A stretch of 64,000 nucleotides of DNA from an uncultured Clostridium sp. (lineage in GTDB: Bacteria > Bacillota > Clostridia > TANB77 > CAG-465), in assembly GCA_947361355.1 (NCBI GenBank), contig CANAIR010000002.1, positions 46,976 to 110,975 on the forward strand, written 5' to 3'. The position numbers and the translations under genes are program-made. Shown one piece after another: positions 9,766 through 33,100 of this stretch (position 1 is the stretch's first letter; every line of letters begins with the position of its first letter). A model generated the notes under the pieces. It did not search any database, was not told where the DNA came from, and worked only from the letters and a program-made list of their open reading frames with translations.

Positions 9766-9793
9766 ATTTATTTTTTTTTTTTGTTGTATATTA

Positions 9794-9826
9794 ATGAGTG
9801 AAGTTTTTCACTCATTTTTTTATATC
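9794..9826 (+). terminator. Rho-independent terminator after the carboxypeptidase gene
   Basis: ATGAGTGAA…TTCACTCAT stem followed by a T-run. Confidence 0.6.
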
Positions 9827-9976: not shown

Positions 9977-10023
9977 ACAAAAAGGATTAACATTTTTAAT
10001 AAAAAAATTGGAGGTTGAAACAT

Positions 10024-11055
10024 ATGATAGGAATGAGTCAAATTAAAAAGAAGACTTTACAAGGTGTAGCAATTGGAGGTGCAATAGGAGTTGTTGGTAT
10101 AGGACTAACTTTGTTTTTCTCATATAAAACAATAAAGTCATATCAAGATGGTAGTAATAAAAATTACCAAAAAAATTATACAGCAAATGTTGCTGTGCTA
10201 ACAAAAGATGTTATTCAAGGTGAAATAATTACAGATGATATGATAAAAAATGTAAGAATTAATAAAAGTACAGTTCCAGAGGGTGCACTTACATCTGGCG
10301 AGATAGCAGGTAAAGTAGCAAAATATAGTATTGCTGCAAATGTACCTCTTATAAGTTCAATGATTACAGAAGAGATTATTGATTCTGATATAAGAAGCCA
10401 AGAAGTAAATACAATAGTTATGCCTAGTGATTTAAATGTTGGTGATAGTGTTGATATTAGAATAATGTATCCTAATGGTACTGACTATATAGTTTTAGCT
10501 CAAAAAAGAGCAGAACAAATTGAAGGTCAAACTATGTGGTTACAATTATCTGAGGATGAGAGACTATTATTAAATTCAGCTATTGTAGATTCATTTTTAA
10601 CTCAAGGTACAAAATTATATGCAACAAAATATGTTGATCAAGATGCTCAAATAAAAGCTTCTGATGATGCAGCAGATAAAGCAGAAGGTTATGTATCTGA
10701 AAGAATAAAGGATAAAATGACTGATATACAAAGTGCAGATGAAGTAGAATTAACTACTATAATATTTGATTTAATTAAAGAGTATAAAAATTTTGCTACA
10801 ACTGTAACAAGAACAAAAGAAAATTACCAACCAAATACATATGTAATGGATGCAATGAAAAATAATACTAATATTTTAGAACAAGCAAAATCAAAATTAA
10901 GTGAGGATGCTAGAACAAATATTGAAAATGCTATAAAAGATTATGCTAATTCTAATGAAGAAGAATATAGTAATGTTGTATCTGGTGCAAAAGAGGCTAT
11001 AAGTAATCAAAAAACTCAAAGAGATCAATTAGTTAATGGAACAGTTGTAGAATAA
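10024..11055 (+). CDS. cpaB: Flp/Tad pilus assembly protein CpaB/RcpC-like (N-terminal TM + SAF domain)
   Basis: N-terminal TM segment, then a SAF-domain-like region (…VAVLTKDVIQGEIITDDMI…VPEGALTSGEIAGKVAKYSIAANVPLISSMI…). Long acidic C-terminal region. GGAGG RBS precedes the ATG at 10024. Confidence 0.65.
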   Translation: MIGMSQIKKKTLQGVAIGGAIGVVGIGLTLFFSYKTIKSYQDGSNKNYQKNYTANVAVLTKDVIQGEIITDDMIKNVRINKSTVPEGALTSGEIAGKVAKYSIAANVPLISSMITEEIIDSDIRSQEVNTIVMPSDLNVGDSVDIRIMYPNGTDYIVLAQKRAEQIEGQTMWLQLSEDERLLLNSAIVDSFLTQGTKLYATKYVDQDAQIKASDDAADKAEGYVSERIKDKMTDIQSADEVELTTIIFDLIKEYKNFATTVTRTKENYQPNTYVMDAMKNNTNILEQAKSKLSEDARTNIENAIKDYANSNEEEYSNVVSGAKEAISNQKTQRDQLVNGTVVE

Positions 11056-11083
11056 TAATAAAGACAATATAGGAGGAATATAA

Positions 11084-11797
11084 ATGCAAGTAATAGGGTT
11101 GATAGGTTATGTTGATAAATATGATTTTGTTATAAACCTTGCCAAGACAATAAATATTATGGGAAAATCTGTCTTAGTAGTTGATGCTACGTTGGATAGA
11201 AAATTAAAATATGTTATACCATCATTAAGTAATGTTGGTAGATCATATATAACTCAATATAATGATATAGATTTTGCTTTAGGTTTTGATAGTATGCACG
11301 ATGTAGAAAACTATTTAGCTGAACAAAGTATAAATATAGGATTATATGATTTTATATTAATTGATATAGACAGTCCAAAATCATTTGAATTCTTTAGGAC
11401 AAGAGGTATGGATAAAAGATGTTTCTTTATTGATTCTAGTGTTTTATCTGTTGCTAAAAATAAAGATATAATAAAGGCTGTTAGAATATATAGTCAAGAT
11501 CCTGATAATATACAAATGACAAAAATATCATATAAAGGAGTAATGTCAAGGGCAGCAGAAGATTACTTTAAAAAACAAATTGAAGAATATGGAATTAAGT
11601 GGCAAGAGCCAGAATATGAATTTCCACAGGATGAAATGGATAAAATTGCTGATATTGATTCACAATATAGTGGTTTAATTGATGTAAAAAAACATACTAA
11701 AATGTATTTAAATTCATTATCTGACTTAACTGCTGAAATTATAGGAGATGTTACTAGTAAGGAAGTAACAAAGGCAATTAAAAGGAGGAGAGACTAA
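11084..11797 (+). CDS. Degenerate ParA/MinD-fold protein (TadZ/CpaE-like, no intact Walker A)
   Basis: Strong RBS. Sits between cpaB-like and tadA-like genes. ParA-like beta-alpha pattern (VIGLIGYVDK…, DFILIDIDSP…) but lacks the GKGGxGK[ST] P-loop. Confidence 0.45.
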   Translation: MQVIGLIGYVDKYDFVINLAKTINIMGKSVLVVDATLDRKLKYVIPSLSNVGRSYITQYNDIDFALGFDSMHDVENYLAEQSINIGLYDFILIDIDSPKSFEFFRTRGMDKRCFFIDSSVLSVAKNKDIIKAVRIYSQDPDNIQMTKISYKGVMSRAAEDYFKKQIEEYGIKWQEPEYEFPQDEMDKIADIDSQYSGLIDVKKHTKMYLNSLSDLTAEIIGDVTSKEVTKAIKRRRD

Positions 11798-12612
11798 TGG
11801 CAAGAGTAGTATTTTGGAGTCCTGATGCTACTATGACAGGTAATACTCATACTGCAGTAGCTGTTAGTAGTTTAATGGGCATTGAGCATAAGGCAAGCTG
11901 CCTTTTAATGCAAGGTAATTTTGATTCTAAAAAAATAGAATCTTCATATACAATGTATGAACAATTAAGAGAAAGTGGAGCTTTGGAAAATGCAAACTTG
12001 GGTGTAAGTGCATTAATTAGATTGGTAACAAGTAATAAACTTACATCTGATGCTATACAAAACTATGCAAAACCCGTTTTAAAGGGAAGGTTAGATTTAC
12101 TTTATGGTATGACAGCCAAAGATAAAGACGGATATAAAGATTTGGTAAATAATTTGCCATATATTACAAGAAAAGCGGCAGAAATATATGATTTAGTATT
12201 TATCGATTTGCCAAAAACAGCAAATTATAAATATATAAAAGATACTTTGGCTGATTCTGAAATAGTTGTTTGTACAGTTAATCAAGACGTTGTAAAACTA
12301 GATCAATTTTTTGAAAAAGTTCAAAAGATAGATGAACTTAAAGAAAAAAATGTTATTTATGTGATTTCAGATTATGAAAATAAATCTAAATTTAATATAT
12401 CAAATATTAAAATAAAATATAGAATAAAAGATGAAATATATGCTGTACCACATAATTTCGTTTTTACAGATGCCTGTAATTCAGGAGATGTAATAAATTT
12501 CTTTTACAAAAATATCAATTCAGATCCAAAAGATTATAATGGATATTTTATAAGTAAAACAAATGAAATAGTTTCAAAAATATTTGAATTATCAAAGTTA
12601 AAAGATAATTAG
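11797..12612 (+). CDS. Degenerate ParA/MinD-fold protein (TadZ/CpaE-like pseudo-ATPase)
   Basis: VVFWSP…TGNTHTAVAVSS replaces the deviant Walker A. DLVFIDLP is Walker-B-like. Translationally coupled, with its ATG overlapping the upstream stop. Confidence 0.5.
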   Translation: MARVVFWSPDATMTGNTHTAVAVSSLMGIEHKASCLLMQGNFDSKKIESSYTMYEQLRESGALENANLGVSALIRLVTSNKLTSDAIQNYAKPVLKGRLDLLYGMTAKDKDGYKDLVNNLPYITRKAAEIYDLVFIDLPKTANYKYIKDTLADSEIVVCTVNQDVVKLDQFFEKVQKIDELKEKNVIYVISDYENKSKFNISNIKIKYRIKDEIYAVPHNFVFTDACNSGDVINFFYKNINSDPKDYNGYFISKTNEIVSKIFELSKLKDN

Positions 12613-12641
12613 TTTTTGAATAAAAATAAAAAAGAGGTGAT

Positions 12642-14537
12642 ATGATGACAGTTGCATTTATATTTAATATCTTATTAATACTTTTACTTATCGGTTTAGT
12701 TGTTAGCTTTTTTGTATACAAAATAAAAAAATCCGATAGTAAAGAAGCAACTGATGAATTATCAAGAGAAAGAGAAAAATACAGCATTGAAAAAATGAAA
12801 GCATTCATAAAGAAACAATTTGATGAGATTACTAGAATGAATTTGTATGATCTTGCACTTTCAGAAGAAGAATTTGAAAGAAGAAAGAATGTAAAATATG
12901 AGCTAAAAAAAGCTTTACGTGGTGCAGGATATGCAGATAAAAATGACAAAAAGTATGTTAAAACTTTAATGTTTGATTTATTAAGAAATAATTATAAAGT
13001 AAACAGTTTTAATATAAATAATGCAATTCCTTTTGATAATTTTGACTCTTTATCTTCACAAGATAAATTTGAGATATTAATGCACGTTTATAAAAAAGCA
13101 TATAAAACTGATGCTTTAACACAAATAATTACTAAATATAATTTGGATATGCCAAAATATGAGTTTGATCCTGAGGTCCCATCTTATGTTATTACTTCAA
13201 GAGAAATAGATCAAATATTTGCTGCTGAAATAACAGATGATACGCTAACTTTTGATGATAAACTTGAAATAGTAGTACAAAGAATTTATCAAGAATATAA
13301 GGGTTATAGTGTAGTAGATGATATTCGTGATATGAATATAGATGGTGTATCTGGTGGTGTATCTGGTATTCCACCTTCATTCCTTGATCAACTTACTGAT
13401 ATGGATGACTATTTAGAACAAATGGAAGGTAGAAAGCTACCAATGTCATATGATAGTGTATGGATATTCTATAAAGGTAAAGCTACGTATTTATCTTTTC
13501 TATCGTTTGGTAGTGAAACAGAATTAAAAAGAGTATGTCAAAATATATATAAATATAATAATCCAGGTCAATTGTCTGAATCTGTTGGTTATAAAATAAA
13601 CGAAATGAAAGATGGTTCCCGTGTAGTTGTACTTAGACCTAATTTTTCTGAGTCTTGGGCATTCTTCGTAAGAAAATTTGCTCCACCTACTCTTATATCT
13701 GCAGAACAATTGCTTGTTCATGAAAATAAAGAAACAGTAATTGAATTATTAAAATATTTAATAAGAGGTGCAAGAGTAACAGCTATAACTGGTGAGCAAG
13801 GTTGTGGTAAAACAACACTTCTAATGGCTATAATGAAATATTTATATCCTACAATTACAATTCGTGTACAGGAAACTGCATTTGAATTGCATTTAAGAAA
13901 AATTTACCCATACCACAATATCTTATCTTTAAGAGAAACTGATACAATTAATGGTCAAGAAGGTCTTGATGTTCAAAAGAAAACAGATGGTGGTGTTAAC
14001 ATCCTTGGAGAGGTTGCAACTGATCCCGTTGCTGCTTGGATGATTCAAATGGCTCAGGTTGCATCTAAATTTACATTATTTACGCACCATGCTAAAACAT
14101 TCCCTAATTTAATAACTGCACTTAGAAACTCGCTTTTGAAAATAGGTATGTTTAATTCTGAAAATGTTGCAGAAGTGCAAGTTGTACAAGTTATAAACTT
14201 TGATATACATTTAAAAAGAGGTACTGATGGTACAAGATATATTGAAAGAATAACTGAGTGTATTCCACTTGAAAAAGAATTTAAATATAATAATGACTAT
14301 AAAAAAGTAAATGACATGGATAAAAAAATGGATAAGTTTATGGATAATGCTGTTGAATATTTTACTCATATGACTCAAACTAGTAATTATACATATAAAA
14401 ATATAGTTGAATTTGTAGATGGTGCTTATGTATTTAGAAATCCTATTAGTGAAGAGAATATAAAAGCAATGAGAGACAATATGTCACCAGAAGATGTTAA
14501 ATCATTTGACAACTTCATAGATATGGCATGGAGGTGA
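12642..14537 (+). CDS. tadA: Tad/CpaF-family secretion ATPase (TadA-like) with an N-terminal TM helix and ~350-aa extension
   Basis: Walker A AITGEQGCGKTT. CpaF-like motifs DGSRVVVLRPNFSESWAFFVRKF and NILGEVATDP…FTHHA. A hydrophobic N-terminal segment precedes a long, poorly conserved domain. Confidence 0.85.
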   Translation: MMTVAFIFNILLILLLIGLVVSFFVYKIKKSDSKEATDELSREREKYSIEKMKAFIKKQFDEITRMNLYDLALSEEEFERRKNVKYELKKALRGAGYADKNDKKYVKTLMFDLLRNNYKVNSFNINNAIPFDNFDSLSSQDKFEILMHVYKKAYKTDALTQIITKYNLDMPKYEFDPEVPSYVITSREIDQIFAAEITDDTLTFDDKLEIVVQRIYQEYKGYSVVDDIRDMNIDGVSGGVSGIPPSFLDQLTDMDDYLEQMEGRKLPMSYDSVWIFYKGKATYLSFLSFGSETELKRVCQNIYKYNNPGQLSESVGYKINEMKDGSRVVVLRPNFSESWAFFVRKFAPPTLISAEQLLVHENKETVIELLKYLIRGARVTAITGEQGCGKTTLLMAIMKYLYPTITIRVQETAFELHLRKIYPYHNILSLRETDTINGQEGLDVQKKTDGGVNILGEVATDPVAAWMIQMAQVASKFTLFTHHAKTFPNLITALRNSLLKIGMFNSENVAEVQVVQVINFDIHLKRGTDGTRYIERITECIPLEKEFKYNNDYKKVNDMDKKMDKFMDNAVEYFTHMTQTSNYTYKNIVEFVDGAYVFRNPISEENIKAMRDNMSPEDVKSFDNFIDMAWR

Positions 14538-14541
14538 TAAT

Positions 14542-16599
14542 ATGGTTACAAACATAGCAATAGGTTTAGTAGCAATCTCCGTAATTGGTCTTCTTGCACT
14601 TTTTATTTACTATAAAATTGTTCGTCACAAATATATAAAAAATTCTGCTCTTTATTCTAAAGATAGACTTGTAGTAAAAGAAAAGAAAAGTAATAAAGAC
14701 ACATTAGATAAAATATATCAAATCGTATATTTAACTTTTGTAAAAATGCCTATTATAAAATACTATACAAAAAAGACAAGATTAAAATTAGAAATGACAA
14801 ATGATTATACAGAATATGAGTTAAGAAGAAGAACTGGTAAGACTATGTTAACTGCTATTATATTTATGTTTGTATCATTATTTGTATTCTTAAATTTAGT
14901 TAATGATTTGTATATGTCATTAATTGTTATAGTAGGTGTATTAATAGTAACAGAAAAGGTAATAGATATAGGAATTACTTCTGTATCGGAAAAAATACTT
15001 AAACAAATGCCAGAAGCTTTTACTAGTATAAGGCATGCCTTTCATGAGCATGGAATGGTAGAAGAATCTTTTAATTCTGCTATTGATGATTTAGGTGAAA
15101 GGGAGGTAGTACCACAACTTAGAAGAATTAAGGAAGCTATGCTTGCTGAAAATCCTGAAATAGAACTTGAAAGATATTATGACACAGCACCAAATAGATT
15201 TTTAAAATTATTTGCTGGAGTATCATATTTAACTTTGGATTTAGGTGATAGAAAAGTTGATGGAACATCTGTGTATCTTAAAAACTTAAATAATATATTA
15301 AGTGAGATACATCTTGAAATCTTAAAAAGAGATAAAATTAATTATATGTTTAGAAGCTTAACTGTAATTGCAGTAGCTCCACTTGTAGCGATAAAACCTT
15401 TGCAAACATGGGCTGAATCAAACTTTCCAGCACTACTTAATTTTTATGATAGTAGTATAGGATTTTTTATGCAGTCTTTGATTATAGTTTCAATATTTAT
15501 TTCATATTTAATGTTAAGAATTGTTAAAGAAGACGTTGAAGAAATAAAATTTGATAGGGTTTCTGGAGTTAAATGGCAAGAAAAAGTCTATAAATATCGT
15601 TTTGTAAAGATTATAGTTGATGCTTTTAAATCAAGAGAAAATACAAGAAAAAGAAGAAATGAAGAAACACTTATTAAAAATACAAATGCGTATCTTACAA
15701 TAGAATGGTTATATGTTAATAAACTAACAGCTGCATTAATAGCTTTTCTATTATCATTATTACTTTTATTAAATATGCAGCATATTGATGTTTCGGGGGT
15801 ATATAATAAGATTAGTGATGAGTTTTTATCTTTTGGTAAGCTTAGTCCTACACAACAAGCAGCAGCTGATGCTATAAATAGAACAGACAATGAATATATT
15901 GAAAAATATAAAGGCAAAAAAGTAACAAAAGAGCAAATAGCAAGCGAAATGGTTGATCCTGTTACTGGTGAAGTTGACTCAACAGCTGTTGATAGAATAT
16001 ATACAAAAATAGAAACAGTTAAAAATTCGTACTTAAAATTTTGGCAAGTACTTACAGCTTTGATAATTGCAGTAGTAGCATATTTTATTCCAAGTCTTGT
16101 ATTAGTTATAAAAAATAAAATAAGAGAAATGGAAAAAGAAAATGAAATTATGCAATTCCAATCAATAATATTGATGCTTATGTATATCGATAGAGTTGAT
16201 GTTCAAACCATTCTTGAATGGTTAGCAAGATTTTCATATGCTTTTAAAGAACCAATTTCTACTTGTCTAAACAATTATGAATCTGGAGCAGAAATAGCAC
16301 TTGATGAGTTAAAAGAAGCTGTACCATATAAGGATTTCCAAAGAATAGTAGAACAATTAATTTCTGCTGTTGAAAGAATACCTGTTAGAGCTGCTTTTGA
16401 TGAACTTGAAACTGAAAGAGCTTATTTCCATGAAAGAAGAAAAGAGGGAAATGAAAGATTGGTTCAAAAGAAAGTTACAATAGGAAAAGTACTTGGATTT
16501 GCTCCAATGGTATTACTTATAGGTGGTTATTTAGTAGCACCACTTATGATAGTAAGTATAATGCAAATGATGAGTTACTTTAGTAACATGTCATTTTAA
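14542..16599 (+). CDS. Polytopic membrane protein, probable TadB/TadC (T2SS-F domain) fusion
   Basis: 685 aa with multiple TM helices separated by cytoplasmic helical domains, sited immediately after the tadA-like gene. The T2SSF assignment comes from position and architecture, not from a recognised motif. Confidence 0.55.
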   Translation: MVTNIAIGLVAISVIGLLALFIYYKIVRHKYIKNSALYSKDRLVVKEKKSNKDTLDKIYQIVYLTFVKMPIIKYYTKKTRLKLEMTNDYTEYELRRRTGKTMLTAIIFMFVSLFVFLNLVNDLYMSLIVIVGVLIVTEKVIDIGITSVSEKILKQMPEAFTSIRHAFHEHGMVEESFNSAIDDLGEREVVPQLRRIKEAMLAENPEIELERYYDTAPNRFLKLFAGVSYLTLDLGDRKVDGTSVYLKNLNNILSEIHLEILKRDKINYMFRSLTVIAVAPLVAIKPLQTWAESNFPALLNFYDSSIGFFMQSLIIVSIFISYLMLRIVKEDVEEIKFDRVSGVKWQEKVYKYRFVKIIVDAFKSRENTRKRRNEETLIKNTNAYLTIEWLYVNKLTAALIAFLLSLLLLLNMQHIDVSGVYNKISDEFLSFGKLSPTQQAAADAINRTDNEYIEKYKGKKVTKEQIASEMVDPVTGEVDSTAVDRIYTKIETVKNSYLKFWQVLTALIIAVVAYFIPSLVLVIKNKIREMEKENEIMQFQSIILMLMYIDRVDVQTILEWLARFSYAFKEPISTCLNNYESGAEIALDELKEAVPYKDFQRIVEQLISAVERIPVRAAFDELETERAYFHERRKEGNERLVQKKVTIGKVLGFAPMVLLIGGYLVAPLMIVSIMQMMSYFSNMSF

Positions 16600-16671
16600 A
16601 AGAGGTATAAACATTATAGTTTGATAATGTTGTACATATATTAAAACATAAAATAAGGGGGGAATTTTATT

Positions 16672-17163
16672 ATGGATAATGCTCAAAAGGCAATCATGAT
16701 TGGTGTTGGTTTGTTTATTACTATTATTGTTATTGCAGCTGTTATGCTTATAACAGGTATGGGACAAGATATGTTACAATCAGGTCAACAACAAGTATCT
16801 AACATTTCTGCTAGTTTACAAGCGCAACTAACTTCAGATTTTGATGGAACAACTGTAACTGGTGCACAAGTTATAACAGCAGTTAAAAGATATTATCAAG
16901 ATGATACAATGGCAATATATGTTATAAATGGTACTAATCAAAAAAGTTATGGTAAAATAAATGCTACTGGTTATGCAAAAGGAACATATGACCAAGTTAC
17001 ATCAGTTGCAGCAAATAATTCACCAGAAAAAGTTGGAACTTTAACTGATACATCTGCTGCTAATACAGCAAATTATGTACCAAACTCAGCTAAATATAAA
17101 GCTAACATTTTAAAGATAAAAGGAACTAATGATGTTGTTGGTATTTGTTTTGAAAAAGACTAA
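16672..17163 (+). CDS. Pilin-like protein (short polar leader + N-terminal hydrophobic helix), paralog group A
   Basis: MDNAQKAIMIGVGLFITIIVIAAVML…; motif …FDGTTVTGAQVITAVKRYYQDD… is shared with the ORFs at 17354 and 18593. Strong RBS. Confidence 0.5.
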   Translation: MDNAQKAIMIGVGLFITIIVIAAVMLITGMGQDMLQSGQQQVSNISASLQAQLTSDFDGTTVTGAQVITAVKRYYQDDTMAIYVINGTNQKSYGKINATGYAKGTYDQVTSVAANNSPEKVGTLTDTSAANTANYVPNSAKYKANILKIKGTNDVVGICFEKD

Positions 17164-17353
17164 TCAACAAACATATCATTTTTATTATTACAACAAGGTA
17201 TATATTAAATTATATACCTTTTGTAATATAATTATTATAAATATAATTTAAATTATAATTTTATATATATTAAAATATCTATTATTTATATGTTTTAAAA
17301 ATTACTCATATCAATGAATAATTTTTAAAGCACATATTTTAAGGAGGAATATT

Positions 17354-17812
17354 ATGGATGAAAGTTCACTTATGCGAGCCTTAACAGTTGGTGTTGGTGT
17401 ATTTATAGCAATAGCAACAATAACAGCAGTATTATCGTATTATAATACTGCAAAAGATATGGTACAAGCAGTTGGTACTGGGGCAGACTTTGATAGAGAA
17501 TATTCAAATTATATAGAAAATACATTATTAAAAACACAAAATGTTTCATATATAACTGGAAATGATGTTAAAAATTTACTTAACTATTTTTATAAAGATG
17601 AAAAAGTTCAAATAAATATAGCATTAATAACACCATTGTATTTGGATAATGATGATAATTTATTATCATCAAATTTATCTGGAAATAATGTGAATAATCA
17701 TGAAAAGTTATATAATTCATTGAGTTCTAAAATAGTACCTACACAAAAATTTAAATTGGAAAGACAAAATACTTCTGGAAAATTAATTATAAATTTAAAT
17801 GGTATAAAATAA
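17354..17812 (+). CDS. Pilin-like protein, paralog group A
   Basis: MDESSLMRALTVGVGVFIAIATITAVL…; motif …ITGNDVKNLLNYFYKDEK…; strong AGGAGG RBS. Confidence 0.5.
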   Translation: MDESSLMRALTVGVGVFIAIATITAVLSYYNTAKDMVQAVGTGADFDREYSNYIENTLLKTQNVSYITGNDVKNLLNYFYKDEKVQINIALITPLYLDNDDNLLSSNLSGNNVNNHEKLYNSLSSKIVPTQKFKLERQNTSGKLIINLNGIK

Positions 17813-17823
17813 AGGAGTAGATT

Positions 17824-18573
17824 ATGGAGGATACATTACAAAGAGTATTTGCAATTATAATTGCTGTTGTTATATTCTTTTTATTACCACTATATATAGC
17901 TTTTGAAAAAAAAGATGATATTTCCTATTCACTTGCTTTAAGAATTACTACAAATTTTGTAGATAATGTGAAAAGCAAAGGATATTTAAGTAAGGAAATG
18001 TATGACAATTTCATTTCAAGGTTATCAATAACTGGTAATGTATATGATATAAAACTTGAACATATAGCGAAAAAATATAATCCAGTTATATATTCTTATG
18101 ATAATGACTATAAACAAATAAAAGAAAAATTTGATTATAATACTTATAAAGAGCAGTTTGAAAATGGTCAGATTAACTCTGCTACTGGAATTTATAAAAA
18201 CTTAGTATTAGCTTATGAGCTATATGAAGTTAGATATAATGAATCAAATATTATAGAGGCATTAGATTTGAATGAACAAATTATAAGACGTGTAGAAGAA
18301 GGGACATCTGAGGCTGAAAATTATAAGTCTGTAAACAGAGATAATATTCCTGTTATATCTGGAATATATCGAACAGATGAAAATAAAGCCTTATATCCTA
18401 TGAGTAAAGGTGATGAATTTACAGTTATTATAAAAAATACAAATACTACTGTTGCGAGTATATTATTTAATACTTTAACTTTTGGGGCTAATACAGGTAA
18501 TGATACTAAGGTATATATTAATTATGGCGGTTCTATACAAAGTGAAGAATATAGAAAAACAGTATTAGAATAA
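17824..18573 (+). CDS. Pilin-like protein, paralog group B (homologous to the N-terminal ~200 aa of the 715-aa protein)
   Basis: N-terminal hydrophobic helix. …TTNFVDNVKSKGYLSKEMYDNFISRLSITGNVYDIKLE… aligns to the 19480 ORF (…TTNFVDEVINCGYIDQQMYDNFIQKLSITGNLYDIQLE…). Confidence 0.5.
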   Translation: MEDTLQRVFAIIIAVVIFFLLPLYIAFEKKDDISYSLALRITTNFVDNVKSKGYLSKEMYDNFISRLSITGNVYDIKLEHIAKKYNPVIYSYDNDYKQIKEKFDYNTYKEQFENGQINSATGIYKNLVLAYELYEVRYNESNIIEALDLNEQIIRRVEEGTSEAENYKSVNRDNIPVISGIYRTDENKALYPMSKGDEFTVIIKNTNTTVASILFNTLTFGANTGNDTKVYINYGGSIQSEEYRKTVLE

Positions 18574-18592
18574 CTATTGGAGGTGATTTATT

Positions 18593-18985
18593 TTGGATTT
18601 GGCAGCTAATAAAGCTATAACAATTGCTACCGCAGTTTTTATAACTATTATAATAACATCTGGTGTGTTATTTTCAATTGGGCAAATGCAAAGTATATAT
18701 TCACAAGTGTATGAAACAGATATTAATATTCAAAATAGATTTGGAGAATTTGAATCATTTGATAATACTGAAAAGACAGGTATAGATGTAATGAATGTGT
18801 CTAAAAAGTACAGAGATTCAGATTTAGTAAATATATACATTTTAGGAAGCAGTGAAAAATTAAATACTTCTGCTGGTATTAATCGTCTTCCATCAAGGCT
18901 TGGTACAAATCCAGGTGAGGTATTATATAAAAGTACTGTAAAAGATGTAAATGGAAGAATAACAATAGAATTTACAAAAAAATAG
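18593..18985 (+). CDS. Pilin-like protein, paralog group A (TTG start)
   Basis: MDLAANKAITIATAVFITIIITSGVLF…; GGAGG RBS 9 nt before the TTG. Confidence 0.45.
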   Translation: MDLAANKAITIATAVFITIIITSGVLFSIGQMQSIYSQVYETDINIQNRFGEFESFDNTEKTGIDVMNVSKKYRDSDLVNIYILGSSEKLNTSAGINRLPSRLGTNPGEVLYKSTVKDVNGRITIEFTKK

Positions 18986-18997
18986 AGGTGAAATATT

Positions 18998-19462
18998 ATG
19001 GAAGATTCAGCATTTGATGCGTTATACACAGGTACATATGTATTAGTATTTATTATAGCTCTTACTATAACACTTTATTTGTTTAACTCTATTATAGACT
19101 TTTCAGACTTAGCATATGAATTTAATACAAAAGTTGAAGACAATTCTACCATAATTGATGCTCCAGTTGAGGCAAATAGATTACTTTCTGGTGAAGAAGT
19201 ATTATCCTATTATTACAATTATGTTAAGCATGATTTATATTCCGAAAAGGTATCACCAGTTAATTATAACGTAAATATACAAATTGGTAGAACTACAAAC
19301 GAGCTTGCTGGTATGTCACTTTTAGAAATTTCACAAGCAATCGGAATGGAAAATAAGTTTATTTTAAGATACAAAGGCGCAAAATATGGCGATGATGGTG
19401 TAAAAAATATAGATATAGATATAGTGAAAGCAACACAAGAACAAATAGATGCTTTAGTTTAG
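18998..19462 (+). CDS. Pilin-like protein (N-terminal hydrophobic segment)
   Basis: MEDSAFDALYTGTYVLVFIIALTITLYLF…; AGAGGTGA RBS. Confidence 0.45.
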   Translation: MEDSAFDALYTGTYVLVFIIALTITLYLFNSIIDFSDLAYEFNTKVEDNSTIIDAPVEANRLLSGEEVLSYYYNYVKHDLYSEKVSPVNYNVNIQIGRTTNELAGMSLLEISQAIGMENKFILRYKGAKYGDDGVKNIDIDIVKATQEQIDALV

Positions 19463-19479
19463 AAAGGTGTGAAATATAA

Positions 19480-21627
19480 TTGAAGGATAATTTAAGTATT
19501 ATTGTAACTATGCTTGTTTTTGTTATTTTGATAGTTATATTTCCATTATATAACTACTTTGAAAGACAAGATGATATGTCATATAATATTGTTTTAAAGT
19601 CTACGACAAACTTTGTAGATGAAGTTATAAATTGTGGTTATATAGATCAACAAATGTATGATAATTTTATTCAAAAATTATCAATAACAGGAAATTTATA
19701 TGATATCCAGTTAGAAGCCCATAAAAGAACGTATACTAAAGATCCATATAATATGCGCTTAGATACTTTTATTGAGCAGTATAATATTGATTATAATAAT
19801 GATATTTTTGATCAAGGTACTGGTGTTACTAAACAAAGTAATGTAAGTGTAGATAATAAAGTGTTAAAAAATGGCGTTTATTACCTAAATGTTGGAGATC
19901 AAATATATGTAAAATTGAAAAATAGTGGAACTACTATGGCTGGCGCAATATTTAATATAATAGTTCCAACTTCTAAGCAAGAAAGAGTTACAGTAAATTA
20001 TGGTGGAATTATAAAGAATAACGCATGGGAAAAACAAGATATTAGTAATTTGTTTCAAAAAGACATTTATACAGAAATATATGTAGATAAGGCAGTTACA
20101 CCTGGACTTACTAATAAAATTAATGATAGACCTACATATTCATTAAATGAAAGTAGTGAAATAAAAGTAGTAGTTAAAATATTAAATTACGAAAAATCCC
20201 AGGAATCAAATATAGCAAGTATTTTAAAAGACAATTTAAAAATAACAGGATTTGAATCTAAAAAAACAATATTGCCTACAAGTGTAATAAAAAGTGCAAG
20301 CTCACCAGAGTGGGTAGCAACATATAATGTAAATAGTATTTCATCTTCTGTTGAAGAATACTTTGGTGGAAATACATATAAAACATGTCAAGTAGAATTA
20401 GAACCTGATTTAATTCAAGGAAACTATTTTAAAAATAGTTTAACCTCATCTGATACATTTGTAATAAAGAAAAATAACACAGATACTGCTACACCTGATA
20501 TTACAGGTGCATATCTAAATGGTAGTTCTTCAGTTGTAAATAACATTGAAATTGGCAGTACTGTAATTTATTATTTGAATTATTATGATTCTACATTAAT
20601 TGCATCAGCAAATGAAATGAAAAACTATATATCAGCTACTAATTTTACTTATGATGACTTGGTTGTTCAACATGATAGTGGTTCCAAAAGATTTAAGCTT
20701 ACTTTTTCAAATGTAAGCGGTGAACCAGATGTTAGAATAAAAATAAATGTTGCAGGTGATTGGGCCCAATACTCACAAGGTGGTACAATAAAAAAAGTAG
20801 GGACACTTTCATCTCGTGAATCAACTCTTAAGTTTTTACCAAAAAATTATACAACACCTGGTATATATAAATTTGTTATACCTTCTGATGGTAGATATAG
20901 ATTAGAAGTTGTAGGTGCAAATGGTGGTGGAAATGCTAACTATTCCTCAAATAGGGGAAGTAGAGGCGGAAAAGGTGGAAGAACCGCTGGTACTATTGCA
21001 CTTACCAAAGGGCAAGTTTTATACATTGTTGTTGGTGGCTCAGGTAAGTCTGCAATTTCTGGCTCTGTTGGTACAGGTGGTTATAATGGTGGTGGAAACG
21101 GTACTAAATCATTAACTGATAACACAAAATTTGGTTTTGGTGGCGGTGGAGCTACTGATATAAGATTGTCAGATACTAATATCTCTAGTCCAATTGATGG
21201 CTTAAGCAAGAGAATTATTGTTGCTGGCGGAGGCGGAGGCGCTGACGATATTGATATTGATGGAACAACAAATTCTGGAGTACTTGGTAGTATAGATGAT
21301 GGTTCAGGAGGATTTGGAGCTGGAGGATTAAATAATGGTGGTTATGGTTTTGTTGATGGTTCAGTATCAGGTGGTGCTAAACCAGGAACAACAACATCAG
21401 GATTTAGTCTAGGAATAGGACAAAATGCTTCTTCTAGTAATGATGCTGGAGGTGGAGGCGGAGGCTATTATGGTGGCTTTGCATCTCCAACTTCGAATTC
21501 AAATTCAGGTGGAGCTGGTGGTTCGGGATACATAGCAGCAGGATTTATAGACATTGTAGGCGCTAATGGAGTAAATTCATCAACTATTGGAAATGGAAGT
21601 GCTTCTATAACATATATGGGAAAGTAA
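19480..21627 (+). CDS. Large pilin-like protein with a ~270-aa glycine-rich (polyglycine-motif) C-terminal domain; candidate tip/adhesin subunit
   Basis: TTG start after AAAGGTG. N-terminal hydrophobic helix and paralogy to the ORF at 17824. The C-terminal domain is full of spaced GGxGG/GGGGG motifs (GANGGGNAN, GGKGG, GFGGGGAT, AGGGGGADD, DAGGGGGGYYGG, SGGAGGSGY). Confidence 0.55.
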   Translation: MKDNLSIIVTMLVFVILIVIFPLYNYFERQDDMSYNIVLKSTTNFVDEVINCGYIDQQMYDNFIQKLSITGNLYDIQLEAHKRTYTKDPYNMRLDTFIEQYNIDYNNDIFDQGTGVTKQSNVSVDNKVLKNGVYYLNVGDQIYVKLKNSGTTMAGAIFNIIVPTSKQERVTVNYGGIIKNNAWEKQDISNLFQKDIYTEIYVDKAVTPGLTNKINDRPTYSLNESSEIKVVVKILNYEKSQESNIASILKDNLKITGFESKKTILPTSVIKSASSPEWVATYNVNSISSSVEEYFGGNTYKTCQVELEPDLIQGNYFKNSLTSSDTFVIKKNNTDTATPDITGAYLNGSSSVVNNIEIGSTVIYYLNYYDSTLIASANEMKNYISATNFTYDDLVVQHDSGSKRFKLTFSNVSGEPDVRIKINVAGDWAQYSQGGTIKKVGTLSSRESTLKFLPKNYTTPGIYKFVIPSDGRYRLEVVGANGGGNANYSSNRGSRGGKGGRTAGTIALTKGQVLYIVVGGSGKSAISGSVGTGGYNGGGNGTKSLTDNTKFGFGGGGATDIRLSDTNISSPIDGLSKRIIVAGGGGGADDIDIDGTTNSGVLGSIDDGSGGFGAGGLNNGGYGFVDGSVSGGAKPGTTTSGFSLGIGQNASSSNDAGGGGGGYYGGFASPTSNSNSGGAGGSGYIAAGFIDIVGANGVNSSTIGNGSASITYMGK

Positions 21628-21636
21628 GGTGAAAAT

Positions 21637-22878
21637 GTGAAAATAACAGATTTAGCTTTAGTATTTATTGGAATCATATTACCAATTATAATAGTAGTAT
21701 ATATAAATGTTTCTTTTACAATTAAAGCTCAAGAACAAGAAATGTACTATCAAAATATAATTGATATAGCAGCGCAAGATGCAGCAAATCAAATGAAGGA
21801 AGTCGAAAATGATGATTCAAATGTAGATTATGGATATTCTGGAGTAGATAACCAAAAAATAAGTGTTAATGCACAAATAGCTGTTGACACATTTTTAAAT
21901 AATTTATATAATAACTTTAATATAAAAGGTAATGAGGCGGCGCAAAAATATTTACAACTTTTTGTACCTGCAATTGCAATTATAGATTATGATGGTGTCC
22001 AAATATCATCAGTTGAATCCTCAAAAGATATGACAGATACAGAAGTACAAAGTGGAAAAATAAATACATATAATAGTGATTGGAGTGTTACAAAGCATGT
22101 ATTAAAACCAAAAAGATACTATACATATACTTATTCTATAATTAGAGAAGGTGGAGCAAGCGGAATTGAATATAAAATGGTAGATGGAATATCTTCTAAT
22201 CCAAATGCTGTTTCATATCATGAAATAGAATTTACTATGGATGATTATTTAACACATAGACAGTATGAAAAAAATGATACTAAAGAAAGCCAGCCAGAAA
22301 GTTTTTATTTAACAGATGGTAAGTATAATGATAGTCTTGTAAGTGGTATAAGAGCTAGTGAAGCGTCAAATGCAGCTTCATTTAAACAGGAAGTAATACA
22401 AAAACTTTCAAGTAAACGTGAAGATACAATTGCAAATACTTTAATAAAAGAAATGACATATGCAACAAATGCTAATAACTCATATGCTAGAAGTGCAGGA
22501 ATTACGTATAATTTCTCATTTCCAACAACAACACATGAAGAATTATATGGAACAATAAAAAATGTAGGATTTATGGCCTTTGTACAGGGGTTATCAGTTG
22601 GTACAAAATATTTGAACACAAAAGCATACGGACTAAATAACTTAGGTCTTGCAACAAGATACTATTTTACAATTCCTAATATAGATTCAAAATATAAGCT
22701 TAATTTATATCATAAAGATACAACTTGTCCAGAGTATGTGGTTTCTAAGGTAGATGATATATCACCTAGATATGCTATAACAAAACAACAAGCTGCATCA
22801 ATGAAAGTTGGATGTACAATTAATGATATAGAATTAACATTCCAAGGATTTTATCCTTGCCCTATATGTAGTCCATAA
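21637..22878 (+). CDS. N-terminally anchored protein with a Cys-rich C-terminus (CPEY…GCT…CPICSP); last gene of the pilus-like operon
   Basis: GTG start 5 nt after AAGGTG. Hydrophobic N-terminal helix. Four Cys residues lie in the last ~60 aa. Confidence 0.5.
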   Translation: MKITDLALVFIGIILPIIIVVYINVSFTIKAQEQEMYYQNIIDIAAQDAANQMKEVENDDSNVDYGYSGVDNQKISVNAQIAVDTFLNNLYNNFNIKGNEAAQKYLQLFVPAIAIIDYDGVQISSVESSKDMTDTEVQSGKINTYNSDWSVTKHVLKPKRYYTYTYSIIREGGASGIEYKMVDGISSNPNAVSYHEIEFTMDDYLTHRQYEKNDTKESQPESFYLTDGKYNDSLVSGIRASEASNAASFKQEVIQKLSSKREDTIANTLIKEMTYATNANNSYARSAGITYNFSFPTTTHEELYGTIKNVGFMAFVQGLSVGTKYLNTKAYGLNNLGLATRYYFTIPNIDSKYKLNLYHKDTTCPEYVVSKVDDISPRYAITKQQAASMKVGCTINDIELTFQGFYPCPICSP

Positions 22879-23140
22879 TATGTATAAATATATTAAAAGT
22901 AAAGGAGAGTATTTAATTACTCTTCTTCATTTTTATATAATTACTTGTTATTTAAGTATTAAAACTAAAAGGTAAGAAAATTCAAAATATAGGTTATATA
23001 TTATAAAAATAGAATAAAATATTAAATATAAGATGAAAATAAAATTAATTATATTGTAAAAAAAATAATTTTGATGTAAAATATAAATAGATTAATAAAA
23101 AAATATGTAAACAAGGGGAGAGAAAAGTATGATAAAACTA

Positions 23141-29845: not shown

Positions 29846-30153
29846 AATAATCATCCTTTCATATAATATATATAATATGCAATAATACAAATTATGTTAC
29901 AAATGTTAAAATTCTCTTATATGTATAGTTAATATATAATATGTTTGTAAGTAATTTAATATAAAAATAAAGTTTTAGTAATAAAAATAGATATAGATAT
30001 AAAATATAAAGACTTTAACTAAAATGATGGAATTTAAATAAATATTGTTAATAAAGATAAAAATTATTTTATCTTTATTTTTATGTCTTCACTTTGTGGA
30101 CAAAGAAAAAAAAAAATAGTATAATTAATATGTCAAAAAAGGGGGAAAAAATT

Positions 30154-33100
30154 TTGGATAAACAAGTAAAAGATGTATTTACAAATTTAGCAAATGAAGA
30201 TAATAATTTTTGTAATGCGTATGTATCAGAAATAAAATTCTCTAAGAAATTTAATGCTGTAATACTTAATGCAAAAAGCCAAGAAAATATTTCTCTTTTT
30301 GATATAGAACGATTTGAAAGAAGAGCATGTAAAGAATATGAATTAAATAGTTTTAAAGTTGATTATATATATGATGGAAAAACAAATGAAATTACAAAGA
30401 AAAACATACAAAATATTTTGATGGTTTTAACATCTAAGCAAGATTATACAAAAAGGATATTTGAAAATTGTAATATAGATATAAATTTAGATAATAAATT
30501 TGTTACTATTATGCTTAAACAACAGTATGCAGATTTTCTATCTTTCAAGAAAGTAGATAAATATATTAATAAATGTATAGATGTAGAATATGGTACAGGC
30601 TATACTGTAAAAATTATGGATGATCCAAGTTTAGTAAAGAATGAAAGTGATAAGCCAAAAATGATAAAACTTTGTGATTTACCACAGTCAAAAATAAATG
30701 TAGAACTAGATCAAAATGGCAATCCTGTAAATATGCCAAATGTTACAGTGGGACAGTCTGGAAATGATAAAAAGACTTTTGTTAGACCTAAGCTTACAGA
30801 AGAGGAAAAAGAAGAAAGAAAACTTGCAAAACAACCTCAGCCAGAAAATGTTATATATGGTATAAATATAACTACATCTGATAGAATTAAAATAAAAGAT
30901 ATAAATACAAATTATGATAGAGTTTGTTTTGAGGGGCAAATTTTTGAAAGAGATGAAAGAGAACTAAAAAGTGGAAAAATACTTTTAACTTTAGATGTAA
31001 CTGATTACACAAATACAATAGCTTGTAAAATGTTTTTGGATAAACAAAAATTCGAACAAGTTGATTTAAAATTAAAAAAGGGAAAATATATTTTAGTGCA
31101 AGGAAGACCACAAATTGATACTTTTGCTAAAGAGTTAGGTATAATGGTAAATAATATAAATACTACTGAACAACCAGAAGTAGTATATAGATCAGATGAT
31201 GCAGATAAAAAAAGAGTGGAACTACATTTGCATACTAAAATGAGTGCAATGGATGGTGTTTCATCTGCAACTGATATACTTGAACAAGCGGTTAGATTTG
31301 GCCATAAAGCAATAGCAATTACTGATCATGGCGTAGCACAATCATTTCCAGAAGCTCTACATTTTATAACAGGAAAATTTGGTAAGCTTGTAAAGAAAGA
31401 AAAAGGTTATCCAACAACACAAGAAATATTGGACGCTGCACCTTTAAAAGTAATATATGGGGTTGAAGGTTATTTAACACAAGATGTAGAACCATTTGCA
31501 CCTACTTTTGATACTTACTGTGTATTTGATTTAGAGACAACAGGTTTTAATCCAAAGGTAGAAAAAATTACAGAAATTGCTGTTTGTAAAGTAAGAAATG
31601 GTGAGATTATTGATGAATTTACAACTTTTGTAAATCCAGAAAAACCAATACCAAAGACAGTTCAAGAACTTACGCATATAACTGATGAAATGGTAAAAGA
31701 TGCACCAAAGATATATGAAGTTTTACCAGAATTTTTAGAATTTACAAAAGATTCTATATTAGTTGCACATAATGCTAAATTTGATGTAAGTTTTATAAAA
31801 CATTTTGCTGATGAACAAAAATTAGAATTTAAACCTAGTGTTATGGATACATTAACTATTGCAAGAGAGCTATATCCAACATTTGAAAATCATAAGCTAG
31901 GTACAATTGCACAAAATTTAGGCGTTGAGTTAGAAGGAGCACACAGGGCAATTAATGATACTAGAGCAACTGCAAAAGTTTTTGTACTTATGTTGGAAGA
32001 AGCAAAAAAACATGGGGTAGATCCAATTTGGTATATGTATACAAATATTGATGATGAGGCAAAAAAATTACCATATTTTCATATAATATTGCTTGCTAAA
32101 AATTATGTAGGGCTAAAAAATTTATACAAGTTAATTTCTTATTCGCATATTAAGTATTTTAATAGAAGACCAAGAATTCCAAGATCATTGCTTAATAGAT
32201 ATAAGGAAGGAATTATAATAGGGTCTGCTTGTGAAAGAGGCGAGCTTTATCAAGCAATACTTAATAATGAATCAGAAGAAAAAAAGGAAAATATTGCCAA
32301 ATATTATGACTATTTAGAAATACAACCACTTGGTAATAACCAGTTTTATATAGACCAAGGGAAATTATCATCAAAAGAAGATTTAATAAGAATAAATAAA
32401 GAAATAATAGAATTAGGTGATAAATTAGGAAAACCTGTTGTGGGTACTTGCGATGTTCACTTTCTAAATCCAGATGATGAAATATACAGAAGAATTATAA
32501 TGGCTGGACAAGGTTTTTCAGATGCCGATAAACAAGCACCACTTTATCTTAGAACAACTGAGGAAATGTTAAAAGAGTTTGATTATTTATCACCAGAAAA
32601 AGCTTATGAAATTGTTGTGGAAAATACTAATAAAGTTTCAGATTGGTGCGATAGAATAAGTCCTATATCAGATGAAAAATGTCCACCACATATCGATGGT
32701 TGTGAAAAAACGATTGAAGATATTGCAATGAATAGGGCAAAAGAGCTATATGGTGAAAATCTTCCTACAATAGTAAAAGAAAGACTTGAAAAGGAACTAG
32801 ATTCAATTATAAAAAATGGATTTTCTGTTATGTATATTATTGCCCAAAAATTGGTTTGGAAATCTAATGAAGATGGTTACTTGGTTGGTTCAAGAGGCTC
32901 TGTTGGTTCATCATTTGTTGCAAACATGACAGGTATAACAGAAGTTAACTCTTTAATACCACATTATAGATGTCCAAATTGTAAATTTTCTGATTTTTCA
33001 CCACATGGAGTAAAAAATGGATTTGATTTGCCAGATAAACAGTGTCCAGAGTGTGGAACAACGTTAGAAAAGGATGGAATGGATATACCATTTGAAACGT

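Follow-up and report, generated by a model that had tools for sequence, protein, structure and literature searches.

What kind of protein joins a pilin-like N-terminus to a C-terminal part rich in glycine, and what might it do in a pilus operon? This question is raised by a 64,000-bp stretch of DNA (referred to as the window) from an uncultured Clostridium sp. (assembly GCA_947361355.1, contig CANAIR010000002.1, positions 46,976-110,975 of the forward strand), which contains an open reading frame (ORF) encoding such a protein of 715 amino acids (aa). The original prediction, made from the nucleotide sequence alone, was that of a pilin-like protein fused to a polyglycine-type domain, which could act as an adhesin at the tip of a pilus. 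Our analysis suggests a modular minor (pseudo)pilin that belongs to a Tad-like type IV filament system and displays a TNF-like plus glycine-rich domain (GRD) as a binding module. We assign this interpretation a probability of about 0.6. The positions of all features within the window are summarized in Table 1.

The protein may be divided into three parts: (i) an N-terminal module (N-module; residues 1-190), (ii) a stalk of two domains (residues ~191-455) and (iii) the GRD (residues ~456-715). The TTG start codon is considered correct, because the resulting N-terminus, MKDNLSII, is the same as that of more than 100 homologues. Glycine constitutes 28% of residues 456-715 and 5% of the remainder of the protein. 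More than ten spaced glycine motifs had been noted in the C-terminal region, and approximately 13 separate clusters were indeed counted in residues 456-715, including GGGGG at position 583 and GGGGGG at position 657. The local G+C content reaches 0.405 at the glycine-rich part. The G+C content of third codon positions (GC3; 0.127) and that calculated without glycine codons (0.28) resemble the values of the neighbouring sequence, so the local increase is caused by the glycine codons only. Recent horizontal transfer of the GRD was considered as the source of this G+C peak, and was rejected on the basis of the same two native values.

The C-terminal part was assigned to a family with the use of Pfam hidden Markov models. 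The ALK_LTK_GRD profile (PF12810) matches residues 469-689 (E = 4.3e-31; 109.2 bits, cut-off 24.5), and the alignment spans profile positions 6-203 of 243. The related profile Gly_rich_2 (PF21722) remained below its cut-off on the 715-aa protein (12.4 bits, cut-off 24.3), an NCBIfam search with the protein yielded nothing, and comparison of the whole protein with PDB sequences using phmmer gave no match. A family profile built from the homologues did identify PDB sequences, namely ALK (1.3e-14), LTK and SCD-2 of Caenorhabditis elegans, with the glycine runs in register. Judged by its sequence, the GRD is thus a member of the family that also contains the ligand-binding domain of human ALK. The presence of PF12810 in this protein is not in itself new, since this curated Pfam family is already attached to it in the database. 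Scanning of the window with a local GRD profile revealed a single GRD.

The predicted structure is in agreement with this assignment. A full-length AlphaFold model, based on an alignment of 134 sequences, has a mean predicted local distance difference test (pLDDT) score of 88.1, and the glycine-rich stretches mostly exceed 90. In the model, eight strands of residues 456-715 form a beta-sandwich, and the glycine-rich stretches are assigned to neither the helix nor the strand class by DSSP, as is expected of polyglycine-II segments. In the ALK/LTK structures of 2021, the glycine runs are reportedly polyglycine-II helices packed as a lattice. When the model was compared with the PDB using Foldseek, the best 21 matches were all TNF-like plus glycine-rich domains of ALK, LTK or SCD-2 (best E 1.7e-10, probability 1.00). 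The target-normalised TM-scores were 0.36-0.49 for human ALK/LTK (ranks 1-19) and 0.33-0.37 for SCD-2; these moderate scores and the high root-mean-square deviation indicate that the loops of the GRD model differ from those of ALK/LTK. Among the GRD-bearing homologues, whose GRDs are 38-91% identical, the glycine runs form invariant columns and the segments between them vary.

A glycine content of 28%, together with the fact that most of the region has no secondary structure according to DSSP, could also be explained if the C-terminus were a flexible low-complexity spacer, or a collagen- or silk-like segment devoid of a defined fold. We consider this explanation extremely improbable in view of the PF12810 score far above the cut-off, the pLDDT values, the Foldseek match to ALK/LTK, the predicted eight-stranded sandwich, the lack of G-X-Y periodicity, and the invariance and common register of the glycine runs. 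As modelled, residues ~456-715 are a folded ALK_LTK_GRD domain, neither a disordered linker nor collagen. The preference for an ALK-type over a collagen-type domain expressed in the original prediction is therefore upheld by the Pfam, PDB-profile and Foldseek searches, and the C-terminal part was predicted as a folded unit with relatives of known structure.

The extracellular TNF-like plus glycine-rich (TG) domain of ALK/LTK (PDB 7N00, 7LS0, 7NX0-4, 7LIR) shares with the GRD its Pfam family, its predicted fold and the alignment of the glycine runs, but the sequences are only 20-24% identical. The bacterial proteins contain no EGF-like domain or kinase, no ALKAL ligand is known from bacteria, and the GRD is part of a pilus-operon protein, in contrast to a receptor.

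The relatives of the 715-aa protein revealed that its N-terminal part is conserved and its C-terminal part is exchanged. A protein search with the whole sequence identified 316 relatives. Among the 120 that were listed, the N-module is present in all 120, the GRD in 13 and the stalk in 11; over 100 proteins share the N-module at approximately 60% identity. In a HMMER search of 1.84 billion representative sequences, the N-module was found in 760 clusters, of which 312 had E <= 1e-10; it invariably occupies residues 1 to ~185 of its carrier proteins, which range from 58 to 1387 aa. A scan of GTDB, in which each species is represented by one genome, yielded 48 loci with an N-module, none closer than 70%. 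All of them originate from uncultured Clostridia (Clostridium sp. CAG:921, CAG:1219 and CAG:465, and metagenome-assembled genomes [MAGs]), and in 48 of 48 genomes the operon has the same gene order.

Each operon encodes two paralogous carriers. The N-terminus of the 715-aa protein had been described as paralogous to the product of the 249-aa gene located upstream (p249), and BLASTP confirmed this relationship (1e-28, 30% identity, residues 1-185 against 1-245 of p249): apart from insertions, p249 aligns over its whole length with this part of the larger protein. The carriers of both types vary in length between loci (p249 type, 212-544 aa; p715 type, 166-715 aa), as do their cargoes. A Pfam census of the p715-type proteins (n=49) identified dockerin in four, the GRD in three and PKD in two, with single cases of Flg_new, Laminin_G_3, Big and others; among the p249-type proteins (n=48), Laminin_G_3 (17) and dockerin (11) were found. 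Weaker GRD-like cargoes were detected in three more loci with the local GRD profile. The exchange is visible at the sequence level in P0011, a GRD-less orthologue with 49% identity, in which homology to the 715-aa protein ends at aa 428. Within the GRD-bearing group, the identity amounts to 59-97% for the N-module, 38-91% for the GRD and 17-82% for the stalk, which is the least conserved part. The C-terminus of the p715-type protein is thus a swappable cargo on a conserved N-module, and some orthologues have no recognised domain in this position. As to whether the homologues are always linked to Tad-like operons, this is true of the N-module, which is always located in the pilus operon, and not of the GRD, which is a rare and interchangeable cargo.

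Two of the related loci contain GRD genes of unusual structure. In locus L012 (10001-12071), the GRD-bearing orthologue is represented by two ORFs (575 and 131 aa), both matching the GRD, which is due to either a frameshift/pseudogene or an assembly error. In a Clostridia MAG (L051:13469-18352, + strand), an ORF of 1627 aa that includes a GRD (E 9e-32 with the local profile) is located just 3' of the pilus operon.

We also searched with the GRD alone. This search yielded 1651 relatives, and the architectures of 120 listed proteins were read. Among these, 11 have a canonical prepilin N-terminus (G|FTLxE) and 11 a precomputed PF07963 match, 12 begin with the pilin-like sequence KG|ISLIVL, and three are Mfa-like fimbrillin fusions. 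One protein (P0139) is a p249-type carrier with a GRD (E 4.7e-61 over residues 1-239), and another (P0130) combines a p152-type protein, i.e. a homologue of one of the small pilin-like proteins of the operon, with a GRD. Several others lack a membrane segment at the N-terminus, and these could be proteins of phages. A Bacilli MAG (L053:3320-17209; ENA ERZ27256909, contig k141_1632203) contains a tandem array of at least nine GRD genes encoding proteins of 402-747 aa, of which six have a precomputed N_methyl prepilin match and three show the GRD alone; the array gives the impression of a family of pilins with GRDs that is diversifying. A second contig contains a small pilin gene followed by a pilin-GRD gene.

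The 715-aa protein is encoded within a group of 12 co-directional genes (10015-22878) flanked by terminator-like hairpins, which were identified by a consensus scan. The gene set corresponds to a published pilus cluster, described as a conserved feature of the uncultured order TANB77 and composed of genes for CpaB (927), TadZ (928), CpaE (929), TadA/CpaF (930), TadC+TadB (931) and pilin-like proteins (932-938) (PMC11680825). The assignments of 928 and 929 as TadZ and CpaE, and of 931 (693 aa, 8 transmembrane helices [TMHs]) as TadC/TadB, were based on structural homology (PMC11680825). Both clusters consist of 12 genes, the last seven of which encode pilin-like proteins with a single TMH, and in both cases the hosts are uncultured gut Clostridia of low G+C content. 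The sizes of the encoded proteins (TANB77/window) are also similar: 358/346 aa for the CpaB-like protein, 231/237 aa for TadZ, 280/271 aa for CpaE, 640/631 aa for TadA/CpaF and 693/685 aa for TadC/TadB. Of the partners in the window, the CpaB-like protein is recognised by its SAF domain, and the other three were assigned by position and size together with the published structural homology. The ATPase 930 contains one TMH, as does the 631-aa ATPase of the window.

Gene 938 of the TANB77 cluster (HRGM_Genome_2725, CAG-245 sp000435175) encodes a protein of 621 aa with one TMH, which was called a minor pilin since its N-terminal quarter resembles TadE/PilV (PMC11680825). In size, position and description it is the likely counterpart of the GRD-bearing 715-aa protein. 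Recombinant 938 is reported to activate TLR4, which says nothing about its function in the bacterium, and the paper does not refer to glycine, a C-terminal domain, variability of cargo or a peptidase (PMC11680825). The pilus context assumed in the original prediction is well supported by the CpaF-type ATPase, the conserved gene order and the agreement with this published cluster.

The conserved context also bears on the possibility that the protein is a phage-derived, tail-fibre-like receptor-binding protein, which found itself beside pilus genes by chance. Tail fibres of phages do contain TNF-like plus glycine-rich domains (PMC9608196), and the GRD relatives lacking an N-terminal membrane segment might be of phage origin. 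The gene for the 715-aa protein is, however, an integral and syntenic member of the operon in every one of the 48 genomes, the N-module has a paralogue encoded by a second gene of the operon, GC3 is native and the flanks are free of phage genes. A phage origin is therefore very improbable. The flanking regions contain ordinary Clostridia genes (spoIID, spoIIID, an mreB-like gene, and genes for D-Ala-D-Ala carboxypeptidase and an ABC transporter), of which those for the ABC transporter, spoIID and spoIIID are located 3' of the operon.

The similarity of the GRD to phage proteins may nevertheless be instructive. In gp24 of cyanophage Pam3, a TNF-like sandwich runs into a lattice of glycine-rich motifs, the variable distal tip of which has been proposed to bind the host receptor, and both domains are structurally similar to C. 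elegans ALK (PMC9608196). The pattern of the GRD, with invariant glycine runs and variable segments between them, is the same. Pam3 gp24 and gp38 of Salmonella phage S16 are trimeric fibre tips with glycine-rich lattices, which require a chaperone; these phage proteins gave no sequence match at E <= 1 in the PDB searches and were not among the top 50 Foldseek matches.

The assignment of the 715-aa protein to the pilins depends on the N-module. Both AlphaFold runs, of the full-length protein and of residues 1-190 alone (pLDDT 77.7), predicted a helix at residues 2-52, which is hydrophobic in its first half (residues 7-24), followed by strands 74-87, 97-104, 141-148 and 171-177. A helix of ~50 residues, half of it hydrophobic, combined with a beta-sheet is, as predicted, the layout of a type IV pilin. 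The start of the N-module is conserved as MKDNLS[IM] across 48 genomes, and the following residues are invariant: F21 P22 L23 Y24 N25, R29, D31, M33, Y35 N36, Y174 G175 G176 and W183. The most conserved motif is FPLYNYFERQDDMSYN. The stalk, in turn, matches Ig-like domains of Fabs and S-layer proteins in Foldseek.

Several results weigh against a pilin. The N-terminus (MKDNLSIIVTM) is not a canonical class III signal peptide, as it has neither G/A at position -1 nor E5, and no G/xxxxE[FY] processing motif is present in the 715-aa protein, on which PF07963, TadE (PF07811), Tad (PF13400) and Flp gave no Pfam match at E <= 1. Comparison of the N-module model with the PDB using Foldseek produced no significant match (best E 0.06), and nothing was found when the N-module profile was compared with PDB sequences. 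No ORF with multiple transmembrane segments and the GxGDx[KR] motif of prepilin peptidases (Peptidase_A24) was detected in the window itself or in the 10 kb on either side of the operon in 52 loci, although the motif test applied was crude and such a gene might be located elsewhere in the genome. The correspondence with the published "pilin 938" is one of size, position and description, not of sequence. Moreover, the host bacteria are uncultured and, to our knowledge, no pilus has been seen in them; nor do we know of a ligand for any bacterial GRD. The name "pilin" consequently rests on topology and genomic context, because a prepilin signature, a pilin Pfam match, a nearby peptidase and a significant Foldseek match were all missing.

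The same missing cleavage motif, Pfam match, structural match and peptidase would be accounted for if the 715-aa protein were not a filament subunit at all, but a monotopic membrane-anchored accessory or surface protein, resembling TadG or the FlaF/FlaG-type proteins of the archaellum, with the helix serving as a signal-anchor. In this case, the stalk and GRD would extend into the wall or across it, e.g. to bind the wall or the S-layer, or to position the pilus. The location of FPLYNYFERQDDMSYN, at the site where a membrane helix would leave the bilayer, favours such an anchor, and the soluble domain of FlaF was among the Foldseek matches, although this match was weak and non-significant (E 0.28). 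It is difficult to reconcile with this explanation that the N-terminus is predicted to have a pilin layout, with a helix of 50 residues ahead of a beta domain, that lectin-like, dockerin, PKD and GRD cargoes are typical outward-facing binding modules of the kinds found on proven modular pilins, and that bona fide prepilins of other bacteria carry GRDs. Furthermore, a stalk of only two domains is hardly long enough to span a Gram-positive wall when anchored in the membrane. On balance, we regard the membrane anchor as unlikely and retain the minor (pseudo)pilin as the preferred interpretation.

Proteins of comparable design are known from Streptococcus sanguinis, whose modular pilins PilB (with a vWA module) and PilC (with a lectin module) have been characterized; PilB was modelled as compatible only with the pilus tip (PMC8179133, PMC9934059). 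For modular pilins onto which vWA or lectin modules are grafted, a role as adhesins has been proven (PMC8179133). Like the 715-aa protein, they consist of a small pilin-type module and a bulky grafted functional module, and lectin-like modules (PF13385) are a frequent cargo both on modular pilins and on the relatives of the p249 paralogue. The S. sanguinis pilins differ in having a class III signal peptide of the canonical type (IPR012902) as well as a known peptidase, neither of which was found for the N-module, and in being assembled by a machinery of the type IVa pilus kind, as opposed to the Tad-like one described here. The 15 commonest architectures listed for modular pilins do not include the GRD. 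A further parallel is provided by the pseudopilins TadE and TadF and the large TadG of the Tad (type IVc) systems: as in the window, the genes for these paralogous, pilin-like proteins follow the platform genes of a CpaF-type system. In TadG-type proteins, a TadE-like N-terminus is joined to an additional large domain.

Based on these comparisons, the following role of the 715-aa protein may be proposed. The helix of the N-module would insert into the membrane and then be taken up into the filament. As the protein is bulky and present in a single copy, it would probably be located in the initiating or tip complex, as argued for PilB of S. sanguinis; this low-abundance complex might also include p249, p154 and p413. 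The two beta-rich domains could serve as a stalk, and the GRD, by analogy with ALK/LTK and Pam3 gp24, would constitute the binding module, in which the loops between the invariant glycine runs may set the specificity for a ligand. Adhesion is, by the same analogy, the most likely function. In the orthologues, this position is occupied by another cargo (dockerin, PKD, a lectin-like domain or Flg_new) or by no recognised domain.

Table 1. Features of the pilus operon and of the gene encoding the 715-aa protein, with positions given for the window.
Feature	Position	Strand	Basis or remark
CpaB/RcpC-like protein, 346 aa, SAF domain; first operon gene	10015..11055	+	Precomputed SAF match (PF08666) on identical gene (locus L001)
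Two ParA/MinD-like genes, 237 and 271 aa; TadZ and CpaE counterparts	11084..12612	+	Size and position relative to genes 928/929; no Pfam match
CpaF/TadA-like secretion ATPase, 631 aa	12642..14537	+	Closest solved relatives are CpaF
Polytopic membrane protein, 685 aa; fused TadC+TadB counterpart	14542..16599	+	Size and position relative to gene 931; no Pfam match
p163, candidate major pilin	16672..17163	+	Near-invariant N-terminus; hairpin 3' of gene
Hairpin directly 3' of the p163 stop codon, inside a 190-nt gap	17186..17228	+	RNA fold
p152, small pilin-like protein, motif [KR]A|[IL]	17354..17812	+	N-terminal pattern kept across loci
p249, N-module paralogue of the 715-aa protein, here without cargo	17824..18573	+	BLASTP 1e-28
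p130 and p154, small pilin-like genes	18593..19462	+	N-terminal hydrophobic helix in each; gene order kept in all loci
Shine-Dalgarno sequence AAAGGTG	19463..19469	+	10 nt 5' of TTG start; read from sequence
ORF of the 715-aa protein; eleventh of twelve operon genes	19480..21627	+	TTG start; last part includes stop codon
N-module, aa 1-190, conserved carrier: helix 2-52, then small beta domain	19480..20049	+	Homologues; AlphaFold models
Stalk, aa ~191-455, two beta-rich domains	20050..20844	+	AlphaFold, pLDDT mostly >85
TNF-like plus glycine-rich domain, ALK_LTK_GRD family, aa ~456-715 and stop	20845..21627	+	PF12810, PDB profile, Foldseek
p413, last operon gene, N-terminal hydrophobic helix	21637..22878	+	No Pfam match
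Terminator-like hairpin closing the operon	22902..22927	+	Consensus scan; 5' counterpart at 9793-9816

Of the remaining genes of the operon (Table 1), the CpaB-like gene is present in the related loci wherever the contig extends that far, and the pair of ParA/MinD-like genes is conserved across them. The closest relatives of the 631-aa ATPase in the PDB are CpaF proteins (E 7.4e-08 over residues 275-547); its T2SSE Pfam match is weak (E 0.0033; 16.6 bits, cut-off 24.9) and, being below the cut-off, indicates a divergent enzyme. This protein also possesses an N-terminal hydrophobic helix (MMTVAFIFNILLILLLIGLVVSFFVY) and an N-terminal extension of ~270 residues. A membrane anchor is unusual for a secretion ATPase. 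The counterparts of the 685-aa membrane protein have 683-693 aa in all loci.

Each of the seven pilin-like proteins (163, 152, 249, 130, 154, 715 and 413 aa) contains one N-terminal hydrophobic helix. Pfam and NCBIfam scans of these seven ORFs gave no match other than PF12810 on the 715-aa protein, and neither an Flp-type major pilin nor TadE/TadF could be recognised by sequence. In the window and in loci L002-L052, all seven begin with methionine and an acidic/polar stretch. The p163, p152 and p130 classes share a [KR]-A-[IL] motif, reminiscent of the class III signals of archaea; the p249, p154, p715 and p413 classes have no such site. The N-terminus of p163 (MDNAQKAIMIGVGLFITII) is almost invariant over 48 genomes, and this protein is likely to be the major subunit. 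The RNA fold of the region downstream of its gene (17160-17356) has an energy of -38.6 kcal/mol (z = -5.5 relative to shuffled sequences); the strong hairpin located there is possibly an attenuator that determines how much major subunit is made relative to the minor ones. The counterparts of p413 in related loci have 376-426 aa and start with MKITDFALIF. Farther 3' of the operon, on the + strand, there are two very large ORFs, 30094-34572 (1492 aa) and 39387-43160 (1257 aa), the latter with a signal-peptide-like N-terminus.

The TANB77 operon, the Pfam family PF12810 and the concept of modular pilins have all been established previously. Our literature searches on GRD-pilin fusions and on the function of PF12810 in bacteria returned nothing relevant. 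The organisation of the large TANB77-type subunit and of its paralogue as carriers with cargoes was not found described in the literature searched, nor were the GRD as such a cargo and the recurrence of GRDs on several kinds of pilus subunit.

A bolder reading, which we find possible but rather doubtful, is that the ~190-residue N-module is an adaptor dedicated to display, within a branch of the Tad-like systems that needs no peptidase and has so far not been recognised, and that gut Clostridia swap cassettes (GRD, lectin, dockerin, PKD) on it in order to reprogram the binding of their filaments. It draws on the occurrence of GRDs on three subunit classes of the system described here, on canonical type IV pilins and on Mfa-type fimbrillins. 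If it were true, pilus subunits tipped with GRDs would represent a widespread class of adhesins in prokaryotes that has hitherto escaped description. Their variable loops, borne by a rigid lattice of polyglycine, would act in the manner of phage tail-fibre tips, and they would be prokaryotic representatives of the ligand-binding domain of ALK/LTK.

The TANB77-type pilus cluster has been linked to the response to cancer immunotherapy, and one of its large "pilins" was tested as an immune stimulant. As the large subunit is composed of a conserved carrier and interchangeable binding cargoes, strains of this clade would differ in what their filaments can bind. Such differences bear on colonisation, on strain-level associations and on the choice of the protein part to be tested. 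The GRD can be added to the known modules that are grafted onto subunits of pili, and the operon provides a bacterial setting, with its genetic context, for asking what the ALK-type glycine-rich fold may bind outside animals.

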